Shown one piece after another: positions 1 through 33,279 of a DNA stretch of 33,279 nt (within the stretch, counting starts at the first letter, position 1; the number at the start of each line of letters is the position of its first letter). A program made the translations under genes and the position numbers. The notes below the pieces were generated by a model, which was given only the letters and a program-made list of their open reading frames with translations, was not told the origin of the DNA and made no database searches. The DNA is from a virus. Lineage: Duplodnaviria; Heunggongvirae; Uroviricota; Caudoviricetes. The stretch is taken from IMG/VR virus record IMGVR_UViG_2718217785_000004; one strand, written 5' to 3'.

Positions 1-903
1 TTATGAAAGCATAGACCGTTTACCCTCCCTGGGTACGACGGAACAGGGGTCCTGATGGATAATTACATCCGATCCCGGAAAACGCCGTAAAATAGCCTGC
101 TCTACCTGATCCGCCACCATATGTGCCTGAACCAAAGGCAGAGAGTCTTCCATTTCCAAATGAATCTGAATAAAGCGGGTCGGCCCTGACTGCCGCGTGC
201 GAAGATCGTGAGCGCCGCTAACACCCGGCCAGGAAGTCACGATATCAATAATTTCTTGCCGTTCCTCATCAGGCAATGCGCGATCCAGTAATGACTGTAC
301 CGCCTCATATCCCATGCGTAACGCGCTATATAAAATATAGATGCCGATTCCCAATGCAAACAGAGCATCGGCGCGATGCCAGCCGTACCAGGACAACCCC
401 AGCGCCAGCAGAATTGCGCCGTTCATCATAACATCAGACTGGTAATGTAGCATATCAGCCCGCACCGCCTGGCTTTGCGTCCGGCGCACCACCCAACGCT
501 GAAACGAGACAAGGATAATCGTACAAATTAGCGCCACAATTGTCACGATAACCCCGACGCCTGGATCTGTCATCGGTGTTGGAGATATCAGATGTTGAAT
601 ACCCGTCAAAAACAGGAATAGTGCTGAACCGGAGATAAACATACTTTGCGCCAGCGCCGCGAGGGACTCAGCTTTACCGTGACCAAACGAGTGATTATCG
701 TCGGCAGGTTGCAGGGAATATCGCACCACCAGTAAATTCGTCAACGACGCGCCGATATCCACCAGCGAATCCACCAGCGCGGCGAGAATACTCACCGACC
801 CGGTATACCACCATGCAAAAATTTTAATCAGCAATAGCAGCGAAGCCATCGCCGTCGCAGCAATCGCCGCCCGACTGACCAGCCGTCCATAAGATTGATT
901 CAT
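1..903 (-). CDS. fieF: Cation-efflux (CDF family) ferrous-iron/zinc transporter FieF, chromosomal flank
   Basis: ORF 1..921 translation reads as FieF/YiiP ([35 protein letters not shown]...); likely true start is the internal Met (MNQSYG) at 903; stop TAA at 1..3. Confidence 0.9.
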
Positions 904-984
904 AAATACTCCCGCTATCAACTGACGCTAGTATAACGGAAGCAAATCATCTGCAATGCATTAAGCAGCAGGCAAATTGAGGAT

Positions 985-6551: not shown

Positions 6552-7742
6552 TTAATTGCTGTTAACCGAGGTGACCAGATTTGCCAGGTATTTATCGGTA
6601 ATACGCTGGCGCAGGGTCAGGTTTTCGAGAGGAGGCACCGGTGTATAGTCGTAGTCGATATACAGTTTTCCGGCCTTGAGGGTTTCCGCATCGTTGGATT
6701 CTTCGCTGAACCAGCATGAGCCATCCACGATATAGCCGTTTGTTTTCAGCTCACGGAATTTGGCATTGATGCCGTCAACGATATCGCGAATCAGCGTTGC
6801 GGTGATGGGCTTGTCCACCGCCCACATGTGCGCCTCAGCCATCGTGTCGGCCAGCACCTGCGCGGTGCGGGTGTAGTTTTCAAAGAGAAACAGTGGGTCA
6901 TCAGAGCAGGTACGGTTACCCCAGAAGCGGAAACCGTCGCGGCGAATCAGCGTAGTGACGCCTGACTCATTAAGCAGGTCAGCATCAGTGCCGGGCTTCT
7001 GCAAATCCCAGAAGACGGATGCACTGATGCCGGTAACACCGTTCACCCCGACGTTGGACAGCGTTTTATGCCAGCCCTGCTCCTGGTCGATTTTAGCGCG
7101 CAGACCCAGCGCACGGGCGGTGGCATACGCGGTGGCGGTGGTACTGGTAACCGTATCCCATGCGAGGAAATCCGGCCAGATGACCATCAGCTCACGCTGG
7201 CTGAAATTCTGGCGGTAGGCTTTCACCTCGGAAATGGTTTTACAACCCCATGCGCTGATATACCCGAAGGCATTCAGTTCCTGGCATACCGATGCCAGTG
7301 CGACGGCGACCTCTTTGGTGTCCAGTCCCGGTACGCCGAGAATACGCGGTTTAACGCCGGTAACCGACTCAGCGCCCATCAGGGCTTTCAGTCCGGTGTA
7401 CTGACCGTTTTCGTCAGTGGTGCCGATGATATTGGAAACGGTCTGCGCGAGTTTCGTTTCTTCGTCGTCGCCTGTTCCGTCTTCCACGCGCACGACAACG
7501 GTGACCGGTTTTGACTGGTCACCGATTGCCTGCAACGATGCCGCCAGCGTGCCTTTTTTACCGGCCTTTGCAATCGCGCTCTGCACATTGGTGATCAGCA
7601 CCGGTTTATTGACGGGGAAGGTTTCCGCATCCGCATCGCTGGCCGTGCAGACCATGCCAACAATGGCGGTGGATACGGTGGAAATGACGCGGGTGCCGTC
7701 GTTAATCTCCAGCACCTGCACGCCGTGATGATAGTCACTCAT
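6552..7742 (-). CDS. FI: Contractile tail sheath protein FI
   Basis: 396-aa ORF, size and position of P2 gpFI. Confidence 0.85.
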   Translation of the reverse strand: MSDYHHGVQVLEINDGTRVISTVSTAIVGMVCTASDADAETFPVNKPVLITNVQSAIAKAGKKGTLAASLQAIGDQSKPVTVVVRVEDGTGDDEETKLAQTVSNIIGTTDENGQYTGLKALMGAESVTGVKPRILGVPGLDTKEVAVALASVCQELNAFGYISAWGCKTISEVKAYRQNFSQRELMVIWPDFLAWDTVTSTTATAYATARALGLRAKIDQEQGWHKTLSNVGVNGVTGISASVFWDLQKPGTDADLLNESGVTTLIRRDGFRFWGNRTCSDDPLFLFENYTRTAQVLADTMAEAHMWAVDKPITATLIRDIVDGINAKFRELKTNGYIVDGSCWFSEESNDAETLKAGKLYIDYDYTPVPPLENLTLRQRITDKYLANLVTSVNSN

Positions 7743-7801: not shown

Positions 7802-8395
7802 CTATTTGTCCCGGTTGGCTAAGGGATGACACAATTTATTCTTTGTCGCTGATGAGGGGAATTTTTTATAGAGCGTGGACAGGCCAATATCAAAAATCAG
7901 CGCCACACGTTGACGAGATTCCCCCGCAGCCAGCAACCGTCCGACCTGCTCCCACTCACCCGCAGTGAGTTTCGGTCGTCTGCCACCAATACGACCTTTG
8001 GCTCTGGCCGCTTCCAGTCCGGCGCGTGTCCGCTCGACAATGAGTTCTCGCTCCATTTCAGCCAGGGCACCCATCACATGAAAGAAAAAACGCCCCATCG
8101 GCGTGCTGGTATCAATAGCATCCGTCAGGCTGCGAAAATTAACGCCGCGTTCGCGCAGTTCCTCAACCAGAATGACCAGATGCCGCATACTACGCCCCAG
8201 CCTGTCCAGCTTCCAGACCACCAGTGTATCCCCCTCAGATAATGTTCTGAGCAGTTTTTTCAGTCCCGGTCGGTCGGACTTTGTGCCGCTGATTTTATCC
8301 TCAAAAATCAGCTCACATCCTGCACACTCCAGCGCATTACGCTGCAATTCCGTATTCTGGTCATTTGTTGATACGCGGACATAGCCAATAAGCAT
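7802..8395 (-). CDS. Serine-recombinase DNA invertase (Hin/Gin/Pin/Cin family)
   Basis: Translation MLIGYVRVSTNDQNT...VVWKLDRLGRS...MGRFFFHVMGALAEMERELI is the canonical resolvase/invertase catalytic domain (Ser in VRVST) with a C-terminal HTH; sits beside an invertible tail-fibre segment. Confidence 0.9.
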   Translation of the reverse strand: MLIGYVRVSTNDQNTELQRNALECAGCELIFEDKISGTKSDRPGLKKLLRTLSEGDTLVVWKLDRLGRSMRHLVILVEELRERGVNFRSLTDAIDTSTPMGRFFFHVMGALAEMERELIVERTRAGLEAARAKGRIGGRRPKLTAGEWEQVGRLLAAGESRQRVALIFDIGLSTLYKKFPSSATKNKLCHPLANRDK

Positions 8396-8450
8396 GATGG
8401 ATCCCCTGAATAAAAACCAGAGATGATGCCACTTGCCCGTTATCTCTGCA

Positions 8451-8476
8451 TTTTCATAAACGTTGGTTTGGGAGAA
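8451..8476. repeat. hix/gix-like inversion crossover site 1 (TTTTCATAAACG TT GGTTTGGGAGAA)
   Basis: Seen in sequence: 26-bp site with imperfect dyad half-sites; its reverse complement shares TTCTCCCAAACCAA with site 2 at 10314..10339 in inverted orientation. Confidence 0.7.
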
Positions 8477-8944
8477 GGTTCGGCATTACCCGTTGGTGTG
8501 CCTGTTCCGTGGCCTTCCGCCACTCCGCCAACAGGCTGGCTGAAATGCAACGGTGCGGCATTTTCTGCTGAAGAATACCCGGAACTGGCAAAGGCTTACC
8601 CGACAAATAAATTGCCTGATTTACGCGGTGAGTTTATTCGTGGCTGGGATGACGGGAGAGGCATTGACCCCGGAAGGATTCTATTGGCTTCACAGGAGCA
8701 TGCAATGCAAAACGTCACTGGTTCAATAGGGAAAATTCAGCTTTTTAAAGATTTAGTTACCAGTGGTCCATTTCGTCATAACGGTAATAACTATCTGACT
8801 ACTGGATTAACAGCGGTTACAGGCGTAGGTAGTGGAGGGCATGGTGTCACAACATTTGATTTCGATATGTCAAGGGTGGCAAATACCGCCAATGAAACTC
8901 GCCCGGTGAACGTTGCATTTAACTACATTGTGAGGGCTGCATAA
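8477..8944 (+). CDS. Silent alternative tail-fibre C-terminal cassette, promoterless in this orientation
   Basis: ORF 8423..8944 reads through crossover site 1 encoding ...FINVGLGEG, matching the ...YLGLGE junction in H; it has no fibre N-terminus of its own. Confidence 0.65.
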   Translation, partial: GSALPVGVPVPWPSATPPTGWLKCNGAAFSAEEYPELAKAYPTNKLPDLRGEFIRGWDDGRGIDPGRILLASQEHAMQNVTGSIGKIQLFKDLVTSGPFRHNGNNYLTTGLTAVTGVGSGGHGVTTFDFDMSRVANTANETRPVNVAFNYIVRAA

Positions 8945-9546
8945 TGGATAACGCTGTATTAAATAGCGAGTTTATTGCTACGAAGGCAGGGGATATTACT
9001 GTTTATAACTATGATGGTGAAACTCGGGAATATATTTCCACTTCAAGTGAATATCTTGCCGTTGGTGTTGGTATCCCGGCATATTCCTGCCTGGATGCAC
9101 CTGGTATACATAGGGAGGGTTATGTTATCCGCCGTTCTGCAGATTTTAACTCATGGGAATATGTGCCAGACCATCGCGGTGAAATCGTCTATAGCACCGA
9201 AACAGGAGAATCAAAAGAAATCACATCTCCGGGTGATTACCCTGAAAATACAACCACTATCGCCCCTTTATCTCCATACGATAAATGGGATGGTGAGAAA
9301 TGGGTGACAGATACCGAGGCACAGCATAGCGCCGCAGTAGACGCGGCAGAAGCACAGCGTCAGTCACTGATTGATGCTGCAATGGTTTCCATTAGTCTGA
9401 TTCAGTTGAAATTGCAGGCCGGGCGGAAGCTGACGCAGGCAGAAACCACCCGGCTTAACGCTGCGCTGGATTATATTGACGCGTTGACGGCAACAGATAC
9501 CAGCACCGCGCCGGATGTCATCTGGCCTGAACTGCCGGAGGCGTAG
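8944..9546 (+). CDS. Tail-fibre assembly chaperone, alternative copy paired with the silent fibre cassette
   Basis: 200-aa ORF with conserved C-terminal ...LDYIDALTATDTSTAPDVIWPELPEA, similar to the C-terminus of the minus-strand chaperone (...LDYLDALELVDTSGAPDIEWPTPP). Confidence 0.7.
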   Translation: MDNAVLNSEFIATKAGDITVYNYDGETREYISTSSEYLAVGVGIPAYSCLDAPGIHREGYVIRRSADFNSWEYVPDHRGEIVYSTETGESKEITSPGDYPENTTTIAPLSPYDKWDGEKWVTDTEAQHSAAVDAAEAQRQSLIDAAMVSISLIQLKLQAGRKLTQAETTRLNAALDYIDALTATDTSTAPDVIWPELPEA

Positions 9547-9949
9547 GCCATTCAATATCTGGCGCACCGGAAGTATCAACCAGTTCCAGTGCGTCCAGAT
9601 AATCCAGCCACAAATTATATTGCGCCAGTTCGTCACCTTTCAGACGACCAATAGCGGCTTTACCGGGCCATTGTTTACTGTTCATGTATTCGTTGGCCTG
9701 GTTAATTAGTAGCTGTCTTTCTGATTGAGTAATTTCAATAAGCTCTTCATGCGTTGGAGGCGGCGCATCGACCCAAGCGGGCAGTCCAGTGCTATCTGCA
9801 CCAAGCATTTTACCTTCAGGCCAGGCAATACCAGCAAATTGGTTGTAGAGGTTAACACTGATTTCAATAGCTGATTCAGGAATAAACCTGCTTTCAGGTT
9901 CAATATAAAATCCGTTATCAACGGCGTCATAAAAGTATCTTGTTTTCAT
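9518..9949 (-). CDS. G: Tail-fibre assembly chaperone G, expressed orientation
   Basis: 143-aa ORF immediately downstream of H; conserved chaperone C-terminus. Confidence 0.75.
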   Translation of the reverse strand: MKTRYFYDAVDNGFYIEPESRFIPESAIEISVNLYNQFAGIAWPEGKMLGADSTGLPAWVDAPPPTHEELIEITQSERQLLINQANEYMNSKQWPGKAAIGRLKGDELAQYNLWLDYLDALELVDTSGAPDIEWPTPPAVQAR

Positions 9950-9950
9950 G

Positions 9951-11153
9951 TTAATAACCTATTGCGAATAAACAACCGGCAGCTGAAGCACCCGCCCATG
10001 AAGTCCCATTAGTTGTTCTTAAAACACGAACTTTGACTGTCGTTCTGGTAGAGCCACCAATATCGAAGCCCCACGTTGTGCCGGCCGATCCATTCCACGA
10101 GCTAGCAGAAGCACCTGAGTCAATCGCAGTGGCATGAAACAGAGCGTTAGGAAATGCCATAGGTAATGTCACGGTTGCTACTCCAGTCGAATCGGAAAGA
10201 AATCCAGAGACCCACTGGAAAATGATATTTTGTTCAACCCCACCAATTAAAGCCGGGATCAATATTCTCCCGGTATTACCCGTTACCCCTACAGCAGCGC
10301 CAAGTTTTGCCGCTTCTCCCAAACCAAGGTATGCGAGAAGACCAGCTACATCCTTTCCACTCAAATGAGTCAGCGTCTCATCCAGTGGCTGCTTACCTGA
10401 CAGCGCATTGTTAATGGTGGTGCTGAATTTCGGGTCATTGTTAATGGCCGCGGCAATTTCTTTCAGTGTGTCCAGCGTGGCTGGCGCACCATTAATCAGA
10501 GCGGTAATAGCAGCCTGAACAAACGCAGTGGTCGCAATCCGCGTGGTGTTATTTCCTGCGGCAGGCGTCGGCGCTTTTGGTTCTCCGGTAAATGTCGGAT
10601 TATGTTTCTGCGCATACTGGGTATGAGGATCCTGTGCGGCAATGTGGTTTCTCATCTGGTCATCCACATACAGCCTTAATTCCAGGACTTCATCATCCAC
10701 GTATTTACGGGTCGCCAGTACCACCGACGGGTCGATTTTCAGCGTGATGGCTTCGGTATTCGTGACAACCAGAATCATGCGGATAGTCTGGGTACGACCA
10801 CTGCCTTCCTGCAACTGCGGTTTGTACGTTTCCGGGCAGTTCGCCACCGCAATGAGTACGCCTTCATCATCATAAAGCCCAATCTCACGGATCCAGAATC
10901 CGCCCTCGTTCTCAGGGATGATTTGCTCCGCAATAATCTGGCTCTGGTTGTTCGGGTCAACACTCAGAAGATTCAGCGGCGCGATGCGTTTCTGGTTAAT
11001 CAGTTTTGTCTGTGCCGGGTCTGGTGTCGGCAAGACACCATTCGCATCACCAACGGCCATTTGCGTCAGATTCAGCTTACTGCCGAGCATCGTCGCGTTA
11101 GCCAGCCGTGCAGCGCCCTGATTAGTCAGAATGGCGTAGTATTTCACTGTCAT
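9951..11153 (-). CDS. H: Tail-fibre protein H (constant N-terminal part outside, variable C-terminal part inside the invertible segment)
   Basis: 400-aa ORF after baseplate gene I; contains crossover site 2 in-frame (LLAYLGLGEAAKLG). Confidence 0.8.
   Translation of the reverse strand: MTVKYYAILTNQGAARLANATMLGSKLNLTQMAVGDANGVLPTPDPAQTKLINQKRIAPLNLLSVDPNNQSQIIAEQIIPENEGGFWIREIGLYDDEGVLIAVANCPETYKPQLQEGSGRTQTIRMILVVTNTEAITLKIDPSVVLATRKYVDDEVLELRLYVDDQMRNHIAAQDPHTQYAQKHNPTFTGEPKAPTPAAGNNTTRIATTAFVQAAITALINGAPATLDTLKEIAAAINNDPKFSTTINNALSGKQPLDETLTHLSGKDVAGLLAYLGLGEAAKLGAAVGVTGNTGRILIPALIGGVEQNIIFQWVSGFLSDSTGVATVTLPMAFPNALFHATAIDSGASASSWNGSAGTTWGFDIGGSTRTTVKVRVLRTTNGTSWAGASAAGCLFAIGY
10314..10339. 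repeat. hix/gix-like inversion crossover site 2 (TTCTCCCAAACC AA GGTATGCGAGAA), inside H
   Basis: Seen in sequence; inverted relative to site 1, identical over 14 bp. Confidence 0.7.
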
Positions 11154-23324: not shown

Positions 23325-25283
23325 ATGTCAGATTTCGAAATTAAAATTGATTTGAATGTGCTAAATCACCTAGGGATGAGTCTCTATTCCAATACTCCCG
23401 CGGTACTAACTGAGATTATATCAAATGCATGGGATGCAGATGCTCAAAATGTAGAAATTACACTTGATGTTGAGAAAGGAGAGGTCATCATTAAAGATGA
23501 TGGTCATGGCATGTCTAAAGATGACATTATTAATAAGTTCCTAAAAGTCGGTTATGCTCGCAGGGAACATGGAAGAGCCAAAAGCGATCATCTAAAACGT
23601 CAAGTTATGGGCAGAAAAGGTATTGGTAAGCTTGCCATGTTTTCACTTGCCAATAAAATCCAAGTTTATTCGTACAAAAAGGGGGAACAGCCTCAGGCCT
23701 TTGAGGTAGATGTCAAAGATTTACAGCAAAGTATCAAAGAATCAAAAAACTATATTGCTGACTCCCTTGAAATACCCGAAAATCTTGCTTACGGCACTAC
23801 AATTAAATTATTTGAACTAAAAAAAGCCATTGATAGGACTCAAACTTACCTCAGAAAGCGAATAGCTCGTCGATTTAGCATTATTGGCCCCAACCATAAC
23901 TTTACAGTTAAAATTAATGGGACCGATATTACACCGGCAGATAGAGATTTCCTTTCAGATCTCGAGTTCATTTGGGAATTTGGCGAATCCGACCCTGAAA
24001 GGATAAAATCCTGCACAAACATCACACAAAAAAACATATTACCAAATACTATTACCTTTGAAGGAAAAGATGTAAAAGTTAGTGGGTACATTGGCAGTGT
24101 AGTTAAGCCATCACAGTTAAAGAAAGACCCTGAAATATCTAACAACAGCATTACTGTAATCTCTCACGGACGTGTTTTTGAGGAGGACATATTATTAGAA
24201 TTTGGAAGTGCTAAAGTATTCACCAATTATCTGGTCGGTGAAATAGTCGCCGATTTTCTAGATGATAACGAAAAGCCTGATATGGCAACATCTTCTCGTC
24301 AAAAACTACAACAGAATGATCCAAGATACCCTGTACTTAAAGGTTTTCTGGAAAGAACGCTACAACTAATCGATAAAGATTGGGATAAATGGAGACGCGA
24401 AAAAGGAGTAAATGAAGTTAAAAGTAATACTCCAATAGTAAGTGAATGGCTGAATTCTCTCAAAAAACATGAGAGAGAAAGTGCCGAAAAGTTAATTGGA
24501 CGAGTAAACACATTCCGTTTTTCTGGTAATGAGGAAGAACAAAAAGCAGCAAGAAAAACCGTATTAAAAAATACGGTATTAGCCTTTGAAAGACTTAGAA
24601 TTCAAGACAACCTTGATGCATTAGATAAAATAAGCAACCTTCAATCAGAAAATTTTAAAGATGTATTTGCATCTGTCAATGACATTGAAGCAAGCATGTT
24701 TTATGAAATTACTTCGCAACGCCTTAAAGTAATTGAAAAATTCCAAAAAATAACTGATGAAAATCAGCTTGAAAGAGCTGTACAAATGTATTTATATGAT
24801 CATTTATGGTTATTGGATCCTTCATGGGAAAGAGTCACAGGCACATCTGTTATGGAGCAAACATTGACCAAGGAACTAAAACAGATAAACCCTGATGCTG
24901 CTAGCGGTGCTCGTATTGATATCGCTTTCAAAACCGTTTCTGGCAAGCATGTAATTATTGAGATGAAACGACCTAAAGTGCACCCAGATATAATGAACCT
25001 AGTCGCACAAGGTAATAAATATGTACAGGCAACGACACAATGGTTCTCCAATAACCCTAAAAATTGCCCAGGTGGAAATATACCGCATATAGAAGTAATA
25101 TTCCTGGTTGGCTCTGGATATTTACAAGAGAACCAACACTTTATAAATATGCAATTACTTTCTATCAATGGAAAAATATTGACATATAATGACCTAATCG
25201 TGCAATCAAAACAAGCCTATGCTGAATATCAAGACAAAAAGAATGATGCAGCTAGAATTATGAAAATAGTTGAGGGAATCTAA
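23325..25283 (+). CDS. GHKL-type (Hsp90/MORC-like) ATPase fused to a C-terminal PD-(D/E)xK-like putative nuclease; candidate defence/restriction effector
   Basis: N-box EIISNAWDADAQ (res ~31-41), G1 box DDGHGMS (58-64), G2 box GRKGIGKLAMFS (96-107); C-terminus has D...E-x-K pattern (RIDIAF ... VIIEMKRP; D532, E546, K548). AAGGAA Shine-Dalgarno 8 nt upstream of ATG; low GC relative to phage backbone. Confidence 0.65.
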   Translation: MSDFEIKIDLNVLNHLGMSLYSNTPAVLTEIISNAWDADAQNVEITLDVEKGEVIIKDDGHGMSKDDIINKFLKVGYARREHGRAKSDHLKRQVMGRKGIGKLAMFSLANKIQVYSYKKGEQPQAFEVDVKDLQQSIKESKNYIADSLEIPENLAYGTTIKLFELKKAIDRTQTYLRKRIARRFSIIGPNHNFTVKINGTDITPADRDFLSDLEFIWEFGESDPERIKSCTNITQKNILPNTITFEGKDVKVSGYIGSVVKPSQLKKDPEISNNSITVISHGRVFEEDILLEFGSAKVFTNYLVGEIVADFLDDNEKPDMATSSRQKLQQNDPRYPVLKGFLERTLQLIDKDWDKWRREKGVNEVKSNTPIVSEWLNSLKKHERESAEKLIGRVNTFRFSGNEEEQKAARKTVLKNTVLAFERLRIQDNLDALDKISNLQSENFKDVFASVNDIEASMFYEITSQRLKVIEKFQKITDENQLERAVQMYLYDHLWLLDPSWERVTGTSVMEQTLTKELKQINPDAASGARIDIAFKTVSGKHVIIEMKRPKVHPDIMNLVAQGNKYVQATTQWFSNNPKNCPGGNIPHIEVIFLVGSGYLQENQHFINMQLLSINGKILTYNDLIVQSKQAYAEYQDKKNDAARIMKIVEGI

Positions 25284-25288
25284 TTATA

Positions 25289-25312
25289 CCCCCCTGTTTT
25301 TTGACAGGGGGG
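25289..25312. terminator. GC-rich hairpin between convergent stops (CCCCCCTG-TTTTTTGA-CAGGGGGG), putative bidirectional terminator
   Basis: Seen in sequence between stop of the GHKL gene (25283) and stop of the methyltransferase (25325); no clear flanking U-tract. Confidence 0.45.
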
Positions 25313-25324
25313 ATGACATAAGTT

Positions 25325-26374
25325 TTAAATATTCATTTCTGACAAATGTTTTAAAATAGTTTCACCTACGACCTCACCAAGCCTAACAGGAACAGCATTA
25401 CCTATTAAACGCGCAACTGTTCTCATTTCAATTTTTACATCATCAGGCCAAAACTCATACTTTTCTGGGAATGACTGTAATAGCGCAGCCTCTCTTAAAC
25501 TTAATGCTCTATTTTGGACAGGGTGCCCAAAGCGTCCATTCCCATATCCAATACATTGAGTTGTAATTGTCGGTCCAAGTTTATCCCAACACATTCTCCC
25601 ATATACAGCAGTATATGTAGAACCACTTTCTTTTGTATGACATTTTGCTCTTAGCTCTTCTGGCCAATCACGCCATGTTCCACCAGGTTTTGATGCCATT
25701 ATTCTTTTTATATTAATATCAGATAATGATGCAGAGCGATGTAGTTTATCTCCAGCGTGAACAGCACCGGCACTAATTTCAGGAAGATTACCGATTATAT
25801 CTCGCACCGTTTTATAATCATTCTTCTCATGAGTTGGTGGAATTATTTCTATTTCTCCATATTTTGATGCCAATAACACTAATCTTGAACGACTTTGTGC
25901 CATTCCATAGTCTGGACAAAACACCACCCCATACCAAACAAAATAGCCATCATTTTTAAGAGACTTAATGAAGTCCTTAAAAACCTTATGATTCACCACT
26001 CGGGGAACGTTTTCCATTGTAATAATATCTGGCTTTGCAAATTTAATTTGCTTAGCAAAGCTATAAAGCAAAGACCATCTTTTATCTTTTGAACGTACTA
26101 CCCCTAATTTAGCACTATTGGTATAGCTTGAAAAAGGTTGGCATGGGGCACAACCAGCCAAAACTCGAACCTTCGCTCCTTCGAAATATTTAACTAATTC
26201 GCCGTCCTCAATGTCTGTAACACTTTTCTGGACAAAGAGTGATTTATTATTTGTCTCATAGGCAAATCGACAGGCTGCATCTATATCATAACCTGCAACT
26301 ACATTAAGCCCCGACTTCTGAAGACCGTGAGTCAAGCCACCCGCGCCACAGAATAAATCAACAACCTTAATCAA
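25325..26374 (-). CDS. DNA (cytosine-5)-methyltransferase
   Basis: Motif I DLFCGAGG, motif IV PCQPFS (catalytic Cys), ENV, QSRSR, GNAV motifs; ORF track starts at a TTG at 26476, but AGAAGGAGG Shine-Dalgarno 6 nt before a TTG at 26372..26374 (MIKVVDLFCGAGG) suggests the shorter start. Confidence 0.85.
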   Translation of the reverse strand: MIKVVDLFCGAGGLTHGLQKSGLNVVAGYDIDAACRFAYETNNKSLFVQKSVTDIEDGELVKYFEGAKVRVLAGCAPCQPFSSYTNSAKLGVVRSKDKRWSLLYSFAKQIKFAKPDIITMENVPRVVNHKVFKDFIKSLKNDGYFVWYGVVFCPDYGMAQSRSRLVLLASKYGEIEIIPPTHEKNDYKTVRDIIGNLPEISAGAVHAGDKLHRSASLSDINIKRIMASKPGGTWRDWPEELRAKCHTKESGSTYTAVYGRMCWDKLGPTITTQCIGYGNGRFGHPVQNRALSLREAALLQSFPEKYEFWPDDVKIEMRTVARLIGNAVPVRLGEVVGETILKHLSEMNI

Positions 26375-26437
26375 GATAAACCTCCTTCTAATGCTGTGGG
26401 GATTGTAGCATTGTTCTTTCTCATCATCGATGTTTAC

Positions 26438-26476
26438 TTGATGCTTGATTTGTGAATACAAAATCAAGCATGTCAA
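26438..26476 (-). promoter_or_regulatory. Palindrome GCTTGATTT-N9-AAATCAAGC overlapping a TTGACA -35-like hexamer upstream of the methyltransferase; candidate promoter/operator
   Basis: Seen in sequence in the AT-rich 110-bp gap between A stop and the MTase start; -10 element is weak (ACAAAT). Confidence 0.3.
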
Positions 26477-26485
26477 TCATTATTG

Positions 26486-28765
26486 TTAGTTTGTTTCAAA
26501 TCCCGCCCAACCATCAGAAATCGGATATGAAAACGTTTTCCCATCATAATTTACGGTCGCGCCACGCGCCAGCGCCTCAAGCTCCCATCGCTGCGGCCTG
26601 ATACCGTTCTGAGCAAGGTCAACGCGGATACGGGTAATTTGCATTCGTTCCGACCGGGCCAGTCTGGCCGATGGTGCAATTTCATGTGGTTTTAACGAGC
26701 TTCCGTTTCTTTGCTGACGATTTGGCGTTCTCCGACCGTGTTTTAATGCACCTCTGAGCGCCCTCACGACCTCCGGGTCACTCCATTCGATAACACTGTC
26801 ATCAACCAGATTAAGCACTGCTGCGGCGTGCTCAGAAGGTGTGGGAGCCGGTAACGAAGTATCACCACCGGTGAGTTTTCCACAGTTATTGACAGGACTC
26901 CGAGGCGCGGCGATGCCGCTTTTTAAAGTCAAAGGCTCAACGACCGGCACTTTCGGCACAATGCGCCAGTCCGTCGTTCTGGTGATATGAATATGACGCG
27001 CGCCGAGATGCGGCGCGTAAATGCCGACCACTCTCTCGACTTCTTCCTCGTACTCGTTAACGTCATCCGACGGGCTACGGGCAACCCTGACAGTCTGACA
27101 ATCGCGCGGAACATTTGCCCCACCCTGCGCGCTGATATACAACGCAAAATCACCACTGTCTGCGGCAGCGCGTGCAGCCTCGACGCGTTCGTCAAACTCA
27201 TCAGCAATGCTGACGCCGCGAGGCAATTTGCGTAGTTCACGGTAAGCCCCCATTGTCGGCAGGCCAACCGTTTTAAATTGCGGAATGCGCCACGTTGACG
27301 CCCATGCGGTAACAGCCGCGGCAGTGTCTTTCAGCGGCCTGCCGGTATCGTTATCGAGCTGACCATCCAGTGCATAGCCATCGATGTTTTTTGAAATGTA
27401 TTTCGCGATATACCCCGCAGCACCGCCCCGGTTAAGGTGTTTTGCCTGAAAACGGTTTCGCGCAGCTCCTCTTTCGTCGCCATCCTCTTTGAGCGCGTAG
27501 CGACGCATGATTTCAATAATCTGGTTACGCTGGCGTGGATTACAAAAAAGCATCATATGCCAGTGCGGCGTTCCGTCGTGGTGTGGCTCGACGACTCGCA
27601 AACCGTAGACCTGTAAATCATTATCCTTGAATGCCGTGCGCATCAGGCTCCAGATACGGCAGAGATAACGCTGCGCATCCTTTGGATTAAATGCCTCATC
27701 GTTCCAGCCGTGATTTAGCTGGACGGTTTTACTTTCTCCTTTTCCGACCTGACGTGTCGGGTGATACTTTGACGGCGCGGTCAGCGTGATAAACATCCCC
27801 ACATCACCCTCTGCTGCGGCGTAACGCTCAATACCGGCGATGGTGTTCATCAGCTCCATCCGGCGAATTTCTGGATTAGAAATACTGCCCATCACCTTAC
27901 TGATAAGGTCGATGCGCTCGCCGGTTTCCTTGTTTTCAAGGTCACACGATTTAAGAAACTCCAGATTTGCCTGGCGGCGCGCACGCACATCACGAATGGC
28001 ATGTTTACTGGCATAAGGAGAACGGTCTTTATTGACCTCCCCGACAGCAATCAGTAACGCCTCATGCCAGCGCATACGCTGGCCTTTAAGCTGATGAGTC
28101 CACCACTCATCGTTAAACAGACGGGCAATGGCAGAATATGCCTGCCTCGTGGTTATCTGTCCTTTACGGTATTTTTTCCAGTAGAGCGGGGAAATATTGA
28201 AAGCACGTGCAGCGCCAGCAACATGACCATACAGGTGAGTCTGCGCCTCATCCGTAAACAGCGATTCTTTTTCGCCATGTGCATCAACCCATGCATCGCA
28301 GAGTTCCTCATACATCATGAAAAGCTGCGATGAGATACGGGCGGCAAACTTTTTCAGCTCCTTGTCATTCATTCCAGGCAGGCGCGCATAGTGGTCACGC
28401 TCTGCCAGAAACAGCAACGACGCGTCGGTGTTCATTTCATGGCGCTGATTCACGCGCTCAATGCGCGGCCATAAACGACGCTGAAAAGTAGATGTGAGGA
28501 AATAAAACCCGTGCACCGGGCTTTTATTGCGCCGGATGTAGTCATAGCGTGAAGTAAACAGCGAGCGCAAAAAGTAAGGCAGGCGGTTAATCGTGGATAA
28601 AACACCTTGCACCTGACGCATCTCGTCACGTGTAAGGGGTCTTTCGCGCCCGACGGCCTCGCGTGGCGCGTTCCATGCATAAGCACCGGTAAACGCCTTA
28701 CCGGTGCCTGCAGCAAATGCTGACGGAGGTACGCAGGTGTATTGCTCCTGGAAAGAATGACTCAT
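26486..28765 (-). CDS. A: Replication initiation protein A (rolling-circle nickase)
   Basis: 759-aa ORF, size/position of P2 gpA at the end of the early operon. Confidence 0.85.
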   Translation of the reverse strand: MSHSFQEQYTCVPPSAFAAGTGKAFTGAYAWNAPREAVGRERPLTRDEMRQVQGVLSTINRLPYFLRSLFTSRYDYIRRNKSPVHGFYFLTSTFQRRLWPRIERVNQRHEMNTDASLLFLAERDHYARLPGMNDKELKKFAARISSQLFMMYEELCDAWVDAHGEKESLFTDEAQTHLYGHVAGAARAFNISPLYWKKYRKGQITTRQAYSAIARLFNDEWWTHQLKGQRMRWHEALLIAVGEVNKDRSPYASKHAIRDVRARRQANLEFLKSCDLENKETGERIDLISKVMGSISNPEIRRMELMNTIAGIERYAAAEGDVGMFITLTAPSKYHPTRQVGKGESKTVQLNHGWNDEAFNPKDAQRYLCRIWSLMRTAFKDNDLQVYGLRVVEPHHDGTPHWHMMLFCNPRQRNQIIEIMRRYALKEDGDERGAARNRFQAKHLNRGGAAGYIAKYISKNIDGYALDGQLDNDTGRPLKDTAAAVTAWASTWRIPQFKTVGLPTMGAYRELRKLPRGVSIADEFDERVEAARAAADSGDFALYISAQGGANVPRDCQTVRVARSPSDDVNEYEEEVERVVGIYAPHLGARHIHITRTTDWRIVPKVPVVEPLTLKSGIAAPRSPVNNCGKLTGGDTSLPAPTPSEHAAAVLNLVDDSVIEWSDPEVVRALRGALKHGRRTPNRQQRNGSSLKPHEIAPSARLARSERMQITRIRVDLAQNGIRPQRWELEALARGATVNYDGKTFSYPISDGWAGFETN

Positions 28766-29769
28766 TCACATACACCGGCATAGACACTACTGCAAACTGA
28801 CTTATCATTCACCGAAGCCAGCAAATCAAACTGTGCCCCGCCACGCGTGGTCATCGCCCAGTCACGATAAGACTCAATTCCGTAAGCATCGACAGTAATA
28901 ATATCAATGCGGCGTTCCGCACGACGCGGGTCATGAGTTGACGGGAAGAAAGTAGAATTTCCGCGTCTGGAGCATGCGGCGACAAGTCGCTCCCATTCCG
29001 CAACACGCTTAACCTCTTCCGGCCAGCGACTAAAAATTTCAGCTAATTCAGACTTTCTGGCGTGGATGCAGGGCATACAACCGACACGACTGCATCCCTG
29101 CTGGTATAACGGATTAGGTTTAATTCCATGACGTCTTGCAAATGCAAATACCTCCTCATGCGTCCAGTTCAGAATAGGACGGTATACATGGAGCCCGGGC
29201 GTATTGTCCGCATCCTCTTCCCAGGCAGGCAGACCCGCGCGCGCAGGAGACTCCTGAGCGCGAACCCCCTGCCAGCTAATTACCTCATCAAACTCATTAA
29301 GCGCAGGTAACACGACCTGAGTACGTACTGGCTCATGTTTAAGGTCAAAAGTGCAAAATCTGGCTTTAGTGGAAGGAAATCGCCCTTTCCACATGCACAA
29401 ATCAAGAAATGGGATACCAGTAGGCTTGAGAATTTCCAGCGCACAATTGATGCGCTCTGCCGCTTCCCCCGGAGACATTCCGCACTCTTCAACCAGAGAA
29501 ACAGGCCATTTCTCAGCAATAAACTTGCGCTTACCTTCAATCTGTCGGGAGAAGTCAGCTTTAACCCGTTTAACCGGCCCGAGTCGGTTCTCCAGATAAT
29601 CGAGATACTCCATTGTCTGCGGATGCTCATGCCCGGTGTCTGCAAAAACCGGCAAAAAATGCACACCGCTTTCAATACCAACAAGCCATTGAGCAAGGCT
29701 ATCCTTTCCGCCAGAAACAGAAATAATATTGATAGAGCTTTCAGCTCGGCAGCGGGTATCAACTATCAT
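28762..29769 (-). CDS. PAPS-reductase-family PP-loop protein (phosphoadenosine-phosphosulfate reductase/DndC-like fold)
   Basis: PP-loop motif SVSGGKDS near N-terminus and C-terminal Cys cluster CSRVGCMPC; stop overlaps the A start by 4 bp. Confidence 0.7.
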   Translation of the reverse strand: MIVDTRCRAESSINIISVSGGKDSLAQWLVGIESGVHFLPVFADTGHEHPQTMEYLDYLENRLGPVKRVKADFSRQIEGKRKFIAEKWPVSLVEECGMSPGEAAERINCALEILKPTGIPFLDLCMWKGRFPSTKARFCTFDLKHEPVRTQVVLPALNEFDEVISWQGVRAQESPARAGLPAWEEDADNTPGLHVYRPILNWTHEEVFAFARRHGIKPNPLYQQGCSRVGCMPCIHARKSELAEIFSRWPEEVKRVAEWERLVAACSRRGNSTFFPSTHDPRRAERRIDIITVDAYGIESYRDWAMTTRGGAQFDLLASVNDKSVCSSVYAGVCE

Positions 29770-32249: not shown

Positions 32250-32276
32250 TTCACCATTTGCCACCAAAATGGTGAA
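32250..32276 (+). promoter_or_regulatory. Perfect 10-bp inverted repeat TTCACCATTT-N7-AAATGGTGAA between C and int
   Basis: Seen in sequence; preceded by an AT-rich TATATAAAAAT stretch, followed by the int Shine-Dalgarno GGAGGG. Confidence 0.35.
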
Positions 32277-32298
32277 TACAGCGCCGGAGGGCTTTCTT

Positions 32299-33279
32299 AT
32301 GGCAATTAAGAAGCTCGATGATGGTCGCTATGAAGTGGACATTAGACCTCGCGGTCGCGACGGAAAACGCATCCGCAGGAAATTTGAAAGAAAAGCTGAA
32401 GCACTAGCATTTGAGCGATACACAATCGCCAATGCCAGTCAGAAAGAATGGGGAGGCCAGCGAGCAGACCGCCGAACTTTGACAGAATTGCTCGACATCT
32501 GGTGGAAATACCACGGGCAAAACCACGAGCATGGGACAAAAGAGTTTAATCATCTGCTCAAAACCATCAGCGGCATAGGTGATATACCAGTGAGCCGGAT
32601 GAACAAAAGGGCTTTGATGGATTATCGCTCCATGCGACTACGTGATGGCATCAGTGCTGCAACGATAAACCGCGACATGTACCGATTATCCGGCATGTTC
32701 ACAAAATTAATTCAATTGGATGAATTTTCCGGGCAACACCCAATTCACGGACTGCCGCCACTGACGGAGGCTAACCCTGAAATGACGTTCCTGGAAAAAG
32801 CAGAAATCGAAAAACTGCTAAATGTTTTGACTGGTGATGACTTACTTGTCGCGCTTTTATGTCTGAGCACTGGAGGAAGATGGACGGAAGTTGCCACGCT
32901 AAAACCAGCACAGATTACAAGTTGCAGGGTTACCTTCCTGAAAACCAAAAACGGTAAAAAGCGAACAGTGCCGATTTCTGAGGAACTGGAGAAAAAAGTT
33001 AAAGAGGAGGCCAGCGCCAAATTGTTCAAGGTAGATTATGAGAAGTTTTGCGGGATTTTACGCAGAGTGAAACCTGATATACCTCCCAATCAGGCAACCC
33101 ACATTCTGCGGCATACATTCGCAAGCCATTTCATGATGAATGGGGGCAACATAATTGCACTGCAACAGATTCTGGGGCATGCGAGCATTCAGCAGACAAT
33201 GACCTATGCGCACCTTGCGCCTGACTACCTGCAGAACGCCGTCGCTCTGAATCCACTAAAAGGCGGAGTGACGTTATAA
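32299..33279 (+). CDS. int: Tyrosine integrase
   Basis: Probable start at MAIKKLDDGRYEVDIRP (32299); C-terminal catalytic region HILRHTFASH...LGHASIQQTMTYAHL (R-H-R-Y); stop TAA at the last bases of the window. Confidence 0.9.
   Translation: MAIKKLDDGRYEVDIRPRGRDGKRIRRKFERKAEALAFERYTIANASQKEWGGQRADRRTLTELLDIWWKYHGQNHEHGTKEFNHLLKTISGIGDIPVSRMNKRALMDYRSMRLRDGISAATINRDMYRLSGMFTKLIQLDEFSGQHPIHGLPPLTEANPEMTFLEKAEIEKLLNVLTGDDLLVALLCLSTGGRWTEVATLKPAQITSCRVTFLKTKNGKKRTVPISEELEKKVKEEASAKLFKVDYEKFCGILRRVKPDIPPNQATHILRHTFASHFMMNGGNIIALQQILGHASIQQTMTYAHLAPDYLQNAVALNPLKGGVTL

Follow-up and report, generated by a model that had tools for sequence, protein, structure and literature searches.

The design of a DNA-inversion switch of the Mu G, P1 C and e14 P type is not new and belongs to textbook knowledge. 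Inversion in P2-like prophages and the presence of invertases in the Z/fun hotspot have also been reported previously. For the e14 element, inversion has been demonstrated by sequencing and PCR, and the same methods revealed coexisting orientations in the P2-like prophages of EPEC (PMC4272514). DNA invertases with inverted neighbouring genes have likewise been noted at the Z/fun hotspot in a preprint (bioRxiv 2024.10.15.618418).

The locus studied here lies in a window of 33,279 bp (the whole stretch of DNA that was analysed) from E. coli strain C11, assembly GCF_001900355.1, in which a P2-like prophage, apparently intact, is integrated with fieF and cpxP on either side. The order in P2 is H-G-fun(Z)-FI, and the order in the window is H, chaperone, silent cassette, invertase and FI; the invertase module therefore takes the place that Z/fun has in P2, as the preliminary description of this DNA had claimed. 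Elsewhere, the window and P2 are collinear. A second locus in C11, a defective prophage at 3.818 Mb, contains a truncated invertase pseudogene and an orphaned invertible segment. The features of the locus, by position in the window, are as follows.

7802..8395, minus strand: serine DNA invertase of the Pin/Gin family, 197 aa, outside the invertible segment
8290..8395, no strand assigned: candidate recombinational (Fis) enhancer, inferred to lie in roughly codons 1-35 of the invertase
8396..8450, minus strand: spacer from the invertase start codon to the proximal site, with a putative invertase promoter and ribosome-binding site
8451..8476, minus strand: proximal crossover site TTCTCCCAAACCAACGTTTATGAAAA, core dinucleotide 8463-8464, half of inverted repeat I1
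8463..10327, no strand assigned: invertible segment, 1,865 bp from core to core, reverse-complemented in strain C10 relative to the window
8477..8944, plus strand: silent alternative fibre C-terminus, 155 aa after the site, Collar domain PF07484, PHROG 523
8944..9546, plus strand: silent tail-fibre assembly chaperone, TfaE-like, 200 aa, Caudo_TAP domain, RefSeq tfaE
9518..9949, minus strand: expressed tail-fibre assembly chaperone, TfaP-like, 143 aa, Caudo_TAP domain, 48% identical to e14 TfaP
9951..10313, minus strand: expressed variable C-terminus of H, about 120 aa, gp53-like C-terminal domain PF21882 (E 1e-7)
10314..10339, plus strand: distal crossover site TTCTCCCAAACCAAGGTATGCGAGAA, inside H, core dinucleotide 10326-10327
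10340..11153, minus strand: tail-fibre protein H, constant N-terminal 271 aa common to both forms, Phage_tail_fib N-terminal domain

The serine invertase reported earlier between FI and the fibre genes is indeed found there, the sheath gene FI being at 6552..7742. Domain searches place a Resolvase domain (PF00239) at residues 3-135 (E 2e-52) and an HTH_7 domain (PF02796) at residues 138-181 (E 1.2e-12). The protein is 86% identical to e14 PinE and 79% identical to Mu Gin, matches the Gin entries 3uj3 and 4m6f in the PDB (E 8e-94), and is assigned to PHROG 125 (DNA invertase). The catalytic Ser9 is present within MLIGYVRVSTNDQ, at the position of Gin Ser9 and Hin Ser10; the role of S9 in catalysis by Gin has been described (PMC3575834). 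Two further sets of residues specific to invertases, defined in previous work (PMC3798978), are also retained, namely the basic residues K46, K47 and R50 of helix B (Hin K47, K/R48 and K/R51) and the helix-1 patch of the DNA-binding domain, Q150, R153 and L154 (Hin Q151, R154 and L155). This numbering is that of Hin minus 1, as confirmed by alignment with 1hcr. The ORF is intact with all key residues kept, and PADLOC assigns the invertase to none of its defence systems. By its domains and key residues, the enzyme is a member of the Hin/Gin/Cin/Pin serine DNA invertases and is probably the catalyst of segment inversion. The earlier label of Hin/Gin type holds for the family, whereas the closest relative is e14 Pin rather than Hin or Gin.

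The two 26-bp crossover sites are mutually inverted and each has AA as its central dinucleotide. They fall within inverted repeat I1, whose 27-nt arms (8451-8477 and 10313-10339) are 81% complementary, and they share the half-site TTCTCCCAAACCAA, which has exactly two copies in the 33-kb window, one per strand. The chance expectation for this half-site is 0.01 copies, and none of 100 shuffles gave two or more copies even with one mismatch allowed; the two inverted sites named in the preliminary description are thus well above chance. No third site was found within eight substitutions of the 26-mer. The proximal site and the pix site that adjoins pinE in e14 agree at 26/26 positions, and the distal site matches the pix site in stfP at 22 of 26; many related loci have the distal-site sequence as well, 1.6-2.6 kb away from their invertase. 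Reading frames pass through both sites, at the distal site within H (...AYLGLGEAAK...) and at the proximal site within an ORF at 8423..8944 (...FINVGLGEGSAL...), which agrees with the frames proposed from the first reading.

From the centre of the proximal site to the invertase start codon, the distance is fixed at 68 bp, both at this locus and at almost every one of 79 related loci, and the corresponding distances in Mu and e14 are equal within 1 bp. The promoter and ribosome-binding site of the invertase are presumably located in this spacer; the consensus scan did not detect the promoter. The enhancer of Gin, Cin and Pin acts in cis and consists of two Fis sites in the 5' portion of the gene for the invertase. 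Among 67 distinct homologues, synonymous differences are 0.18-0.26 in invertase codons 1-15 and 21-35, compared with 0.38 over the gene as a whole and roughly 0.5 in its 3' third, and the 5' coding region can be aligned with Mu gin and e14 pin. This modest dip in synonymous variation may reflect a candidate Fis enhancer within the first ~35 codons, and inversion may depend on Fis and such an enhancer. A scan of the first 330 nt for Fis motifs (G-N13-C with an AT-rich centre) returned many weak matches and no conserved pair at the expected spacing; it did not discriminate and was left out of the evidence.

The two cassettes that lie between the sites encode fibre tips of different families (gp53-like_C and Collar), with no BLASTP match to the same e14 fibre protein. 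The silent Collar C-terminus is 59% identical to e14 StfE and has no start codon of its own; a scan of the plus strand upstream of it detected no promoter-like site, in line with the promoterless alternative C-terminus of the preliminary description, as is the Caudo_TAP chaperone ORF that follows it. This silent chaperone is 90% identical to e14 TfaE, and its gene overlaps that of the expressed chaperone tail to tail by 29 nt. Neither tip and neither chaperone gave a BLASTP hit at E 1e-3 to Mu S, S', U or U', to the C-terminal part of P2 H or to P2 G; the cassettes belong to the e14 type and not to that of Mu or P2. The gp53-like tip expressed in the window orientation is confined to a handful of E. 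coli genomes and is joined to this H in only two of 5,426 complete ones; tblastn against 50,697 phage records found no match for it.

When the segment is inverted in silico, the 124-aa C-terminus of H is replaced in frame by a 159-aa C-terminus with the Collar domain, and a different chaperone comes to lie next to it. The fibre is 400 aa long in the window orientation (H) and 435 aa in the inverted one (H'), with the frame kept in both and the silent tip becoming residues 281-435 of H'. This predicted inverted arrangement exists. Strain C10, assembly GCF_001900335.1, has this prophage too, integrated at an identical site, with the 435-aa fibre form annotated and an identical N-terminal part of H, and after reverse-complementing 8463..10327 it shows 0 mismatches to the window over 33,279 bp. 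Differing positions span 8478 to 10312, which places the breakpoints inside the predicted 26-bp sites. Both orientations therefore exist in otherwise identical prophages, and the proposed swap of the H C-terminus and chaperone is realised in nature.

A second pair of related prophages repeats this pattern, with SOI121 in the window orientation and strain 1409 in the inverted one. The architecture of the switch is conserved in 79 related loci, and 42 of these 79 IMG/VR contigs carry the same chaperone pair, in orientations that, scored by the chaperones, divide 20 to 22. In E. coli genomes the Collar cassette lies beside an invertase in 786 and is joined to this H in 360, junction counts that also take in matches to e14-like loci and so give no clean ratio of orientations; the chaperone-orientation count is preferred for that reason. 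The inversion switch is real and, apparently, active.

With the anatomy, the retained reading frame, the family membership of the invertase and the two orientations in otherwise identical prophages observed directly, we put the probability of a Pin/Gin-type site-specific inversion switch, swapping fibre tip and chaperone in an apparently intact P2-like prophage, at about 0.93. In the proposed mechanism, invertase dimers would bind both 26-bp sites, Ser9 would make staggered cuts at the central AA dinucleotides, and a 180-degree rotation of the subunits would invert the intervening 1,865 bp. Reading of the late operon V-W-J-I-H would continue into the invertible segment, giving the 400-aa H with the gp53-like tip and the 143-aa chaperone in the window orientation, and the 435-aa H' with the Collar-domain tip and the 200-aa TfaE-like chaperone in the other. 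With two orientations and two sets of H and chaperone products, a population of lysogens is therefore expected to yield particles of two sorts that differ in the fibre tip. The two tips presumably recognise different receptors, and host range may change with orientation, although induction of P2-like prophages is often poor.

A different reading of the two orientations is that the locus is a frozen relic, in which sites and invertase no longer recombine and the orientations are old events fixed in separate lineages. Decayed versions do exist, such as the truncated invertase at the second C11 locus and the stfE pseudogene of e14. However, the absence of any substitution in 33 kb between C10 and C11 besides the inversion implies that this flip is very recent, the invertase ORF remains intact with all key residues, and the near 1:1 ratio of orientations among relatives fits ongoing flipping; we consider a relic very improbable. 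We regard as very unlikely, too, that the inversion is the work of another agent, either an invertase of the Din family acting in trans or RecA-dependent recombination between short repeats. E. coli genomes often contain several such loci, with up to 11 matching places per genome, and the invertases Hin, Gin, Cin and Pin can stand in for each other. Yet the only other C11 locus examined has a truncated invertase pseudogene, the breakpoints lie inside the 26-bp sites, and the exact repeat is only 14 bp, which is too short for efficient homologous recombination. That the C10/C11 difference is an assembly artefact with no biological inversion behind it is scarcely credible, since assemblers can mis-orient segments between inverted repeats but the repeats here (14-27 bp) are far below read length, both orientations recur across independent genomes as well as among 42 viral contigs, and the fibre ORF is intact in both products.

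C10 and C11 form a natural strain pair whose prophages differ only in switch state, and they could be used to test tip binding. It is conceivable, though we hold it rather doubtful, that the gp53-like tip and its 143-aa chaperone constitute a rare uncharacterised receptor-binding module, perhaps for a receptor that is new among P2-like phages, and that the invertase also flips the orphaned segment of the second, defective prophage in trans; such flipping, if true, would tie the fibre state of one element to that of the other. We further note that a complete DNA-inversion switch was recoverable from raw sequence by a first reading.

Among known systems, the P segment of e14 (stfP-tfaP / tfaE-stfE / pinE) has the identical gene order and orientations, including an invertase outside the segment and a 29-nt overlap between the two chaperone genes, and DNA identity reaches 83-89% over the invertase, site and tfaE. 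In contrast to e14, a defective lambdoid remnant with stfE as a pseudogene, the module here resides in an apparently complete P2-like prophage and is fused to a P2-type H N-terminus. In addition, the expressed gp53-like tip is only ~51% identical to e14 StfP, over 64 aa, and the C-terminus of the invertase is 13 aa longer than that of PinE. The G segment of Mu (Gin; S/U and S'/U') shares the logic and layout, the catalytic S9 and the spacing from site to start codon, while its gix sites (TTCCTGTAAACCGAGGTTTTGGATAA) have a GA rather than an AA core and its segment measures 3 kb rather than 1,865 bp.

The invertible loci of other P2-like elements (the EPEC E2348/69 prophages, pro483 and the O157:H43 T22 phage) similarly place an invertase and duplicated fibre and chaperone genes between H/G and FI. 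Phage pro483, which has an annotated DNA invertase, is 94% identical over the 79% of the 3.5-kb region that it matches. The cassette pair here differs from those of the known P2-like loci, and the locus has two sites where the shufflon variant of EPEC has three. More distantly, the Hin/hix system of Salmonella flagellar phase variation uses an enzyme of the same family with conserved residues for Fis/enhancer contact, and the hix core is AA, as in the sites described here. Whereas hin lies inside its own segment and flips a promoter, the invertase here lies outside, and the flip exchanges coding 3' ends.

We conclude, with a probability of about 0.93, that Pin/Gin-type inversion of a 1,865-bp segment swaps the C-terminus of the tail fibre H together with its chaperone. 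The preliminary description had proposed a serine invertase beside two inverted 26-bp sites, each in frame with a fibre sequence, and an alternative fibre C-terminus followed by its own chaperone. Domain matches, a repeat finder and the ORF map recover both arrangements, the latter as a Collar frame reaching 8944 and a Caudo_TAP gene at 8944..9546. The features are as follows.

7802..8395, minus strand: serine invertase ORF, 197 aa (resolvase catalytic domain, E 2e-52; resolvase HTH_7 domain, E 1.2e-12)
8451-8477 and 10313-10339, inverted: arms of the longest inverted repeat, 27 nt, 81% complementary, from the repeat finder
ending at 8944, plus strand: silent fibre frame with a phage tail Collar domain, proximal site in frame
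8944..9546, plus strand: silent chaperone gene (Caudo_TAP), adjoining the silent fibre frame
9518..9949, minus strand: active chaperone gene (Caudo_TAP), coming after H
9951..11153, minus strand: tail-fibre gene H, 400 aa, distal site in frame (LGLGE)

On their appropriate strands, the proximal site (8451-8476) reads TTCTCCCAAACCAACGTTTATGAAAA and the distal site (10314-10339) reads TTCTCCCAAACCAAGGTATGCGAGAA. A 14-mer common to both occurs exactly twice in the window, once on each strand, where about 0.01 matches would be expected by chance with one mismatch permitted, and no third site is present in the window at up to 8 substitutions from the 26-mer. At their 3' ends (window 9518-9546) the convergent chaperone genes share 29 nt, exactly the overlap that tfaP and tfaE have in e14. 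A further inverted repeat near this overlap (9465-9482 / 9591-9608) exists because a homologous C-terminal motif (LDYIDAL / LDYLDAL) is coded on opposite strands.

Inversion was modelled by reverse-complementing the DNA from one central dinucleotide to the other (8463..10327). With the frame kept, 159 residues of the Collar-type cassette take the place of the final 124 residues of H, giving a 435-aa fibre with the 200-aa chaperone gene directly behind it, which is the swap that had been predicted. The alternative C-terminus had also been called promoterless; a promoter scan found no sigma-70-like promoter upstream of it on the plus strand, which fits a cassette that is expressed only once fused to the constant part of H. 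In RefSeq the silent cassette (window 8423-8944; 2400-2918 and 2397-2813 in the retrieved loci L001 and L002) is entered as a gene in its own right, named 'phage tail protein' or 'gp53-like domain-containing protein', with its start codon placed upstream of the crossover site. The entry is probably an artefact of annotating a gene fragment that has no promoter.

Both orientations are found in sequenced genomes. The chromosome of E. coli strain C11 matches the window at 100%, and the 600-bp inverted junction built in silico has a 100% identical counterpart in E. coli strain C10. In C10 this prophage occupies the same position on the chromosome, flanked by fieF and cpxP. After reverse-complementing 8463..10327, the C10 prophage has no mismatch to the window over 33,279 bp. 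The observation behind the earlier reading of an invertase-driven fibre/chaperone switch is confirmed, and its interpretation is supported. The first position that differs between C10 and C11 is 8478 and the last 10312, which places the breakpoints inside the two 26-bp sites. The 435-aa fibre predicted for the inverted state is annotated in RefSeq for C10, and the 400-aa form for C11. In a second, more divergent pair, both junctions have the window orientation in SOI121 and the inverted one in strain 1409.

Similar variation is seen among 79 IMG/VR viral contigs with a gene for a related invertase. Of these, 42 share the window's two convergent chaperone types, 20 oriented as in the window and 22 the opposite way. 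Across the contigs, the centre of the proximal site nearly always lies 68 bp upstream of the invertase start codon, with the distal inverted site 1.6-2.6 kb away. Since the orientation evidence compares assembly with assembly, rather than reads from a single culture, flipping inside one population is implied, if strongly. Some contigs (L064, L072, L078 and L081) have at least three crossover sites, much like shufflon-type systems that undergo multiple inversions. In two others (L063 and L079) the distal site is direct, not inverted, relative to the proximal one; such an arrangement would favour deletion or point to a system with several sites. The C11 chromosome also holds a second fibre locus of the invertible type (3814267-3822863; L086), in a defective Mu/e14-like prophage, with two gp53-like tips, two convergent chaperones and, as its only invertase, a truncated pseudogene. 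The intact window invertase could act on this locus in trans.

The invertase is 86% identical to e14 PinE and 79% to Mu Gin over 181 residues, and its top solved-structure matches are Gin structures (3uj3 and 4m6f, E 8e-94). It has Ser9, the residue that makes the covalent DNA link in Gin (PMC3575834). Residues reported to be conserved only in Fis/enhancer-dependent invertases (Hin K47, K/R48 and K/R51; Q151, R154 and L155; PMC3798978) are present as K46, K47 and R50 and as Q150, R153 and L154, an offset of one that is borne out by alignment to the Hin DNA-binding domain. Analogy with Mu, P1 and Hin suggests that inversion would depend on Fis and an enhancer, and that the two orientations would differ in host range. 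A simple Fis-motif scan was uninformative and did not locate the enhancer. Across 67 distinct homologous genes, synonymous differences fall to 0.18-0.26 in codons 1-15 and 21-35 (codons 1-35 being window 8290-8395), compared with 0.38 for the whole gene and about 0.5 in its 3' third; codons 1-35 show about half the synonymous variation of the 3' third. This dip fits an embedded cis element such as a recombinational enhancer, among other possible causes.

Outside the inversion module, the window has the collinear layout of a P2-like prophage, in the order ogr, D, U, T, E, FII, FI, then I, J, W, V, lysis, head genes, terminase, portal, gpA, cox, repressor and integrase. P2 has fun(Z) between G and FI; here the silent cassette and invertase occupy the corresponding interval, so that the module fills the Z/fun slot, as had been suggested. 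The left end (1-921, minus strand) is the host gene fieF (CDF cation efflux; compare the retrieved locus L006), and the integrase (32269-33279) lies at the cpxP side in C10 and C11. Between the portal gene and gpA, in the old/tin slot that is the other classical P2 hotspot, sits a convergent gene pair (23325-26476). It encodes a 652-aa restriction enzyme of the BbrUII/HgiDII family, which has a HATPase_c_3 domain (PADLOC REase_II, E 2e-91), and a 383-aa C5 cytosine methyltransferase; the two look like a prophage-borne type II restriction-modification system. Directly downstream of gpA, and overlapping its end, is the gene for a 335-aa PAPS-reductase-family protein (28762-29769, minus strand), which PADLOC matches weakly to SspD, BrxP and DndC (E 9e-22 to 6e-4) and which might serve in DNA modification or anti-defence.

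The finding is correct but already known from related systems. Sequencing and PCR revealed coexisting orientations at e14 and also at two P2-like prophage loci in EPEC E2348/69, one two-state and the other a three-site shufflon (PMC4272514). A 2024 hotspot preprint reports that the P2-like Z/fun hotspot often encodes a DNA invertase, with adjacent genes inverted (bioRxiv 2024.10.15.618418), and deposited phages, including pro483 and a P2-like phage from O157:H43, have a DNA invertase annotated between duplicated fibre/chaperone genes. Only the gp53-like active tip is mildly unusual; a search of 50,697 phage records gave no match to it, and its junction with H is found in just two complete E. 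coli genomes, C11 and SOI121.

The inversion module and the P segment of e14, a defective prophage, are close homologues: e14 has the same order (stfP, tfaP, tfaE in reverse, stfE in reverse, pinE) and 83-89% DNA identity across pin, the proximal site and tfaE. The proximal site is identical at 26/26 positions to the e14 pix site beside pinE, and the distal site at 22/26 to that in stfP. Protein identities are 90% for the silent chaperone with TfaE, 59% for the silent tip with StfE and 48% for the active chaperone with TfaP. Mu follows the same logic, but its gix sites are unlike those here and BLASTP finds no relationship to its fibre and chaperone proteins.
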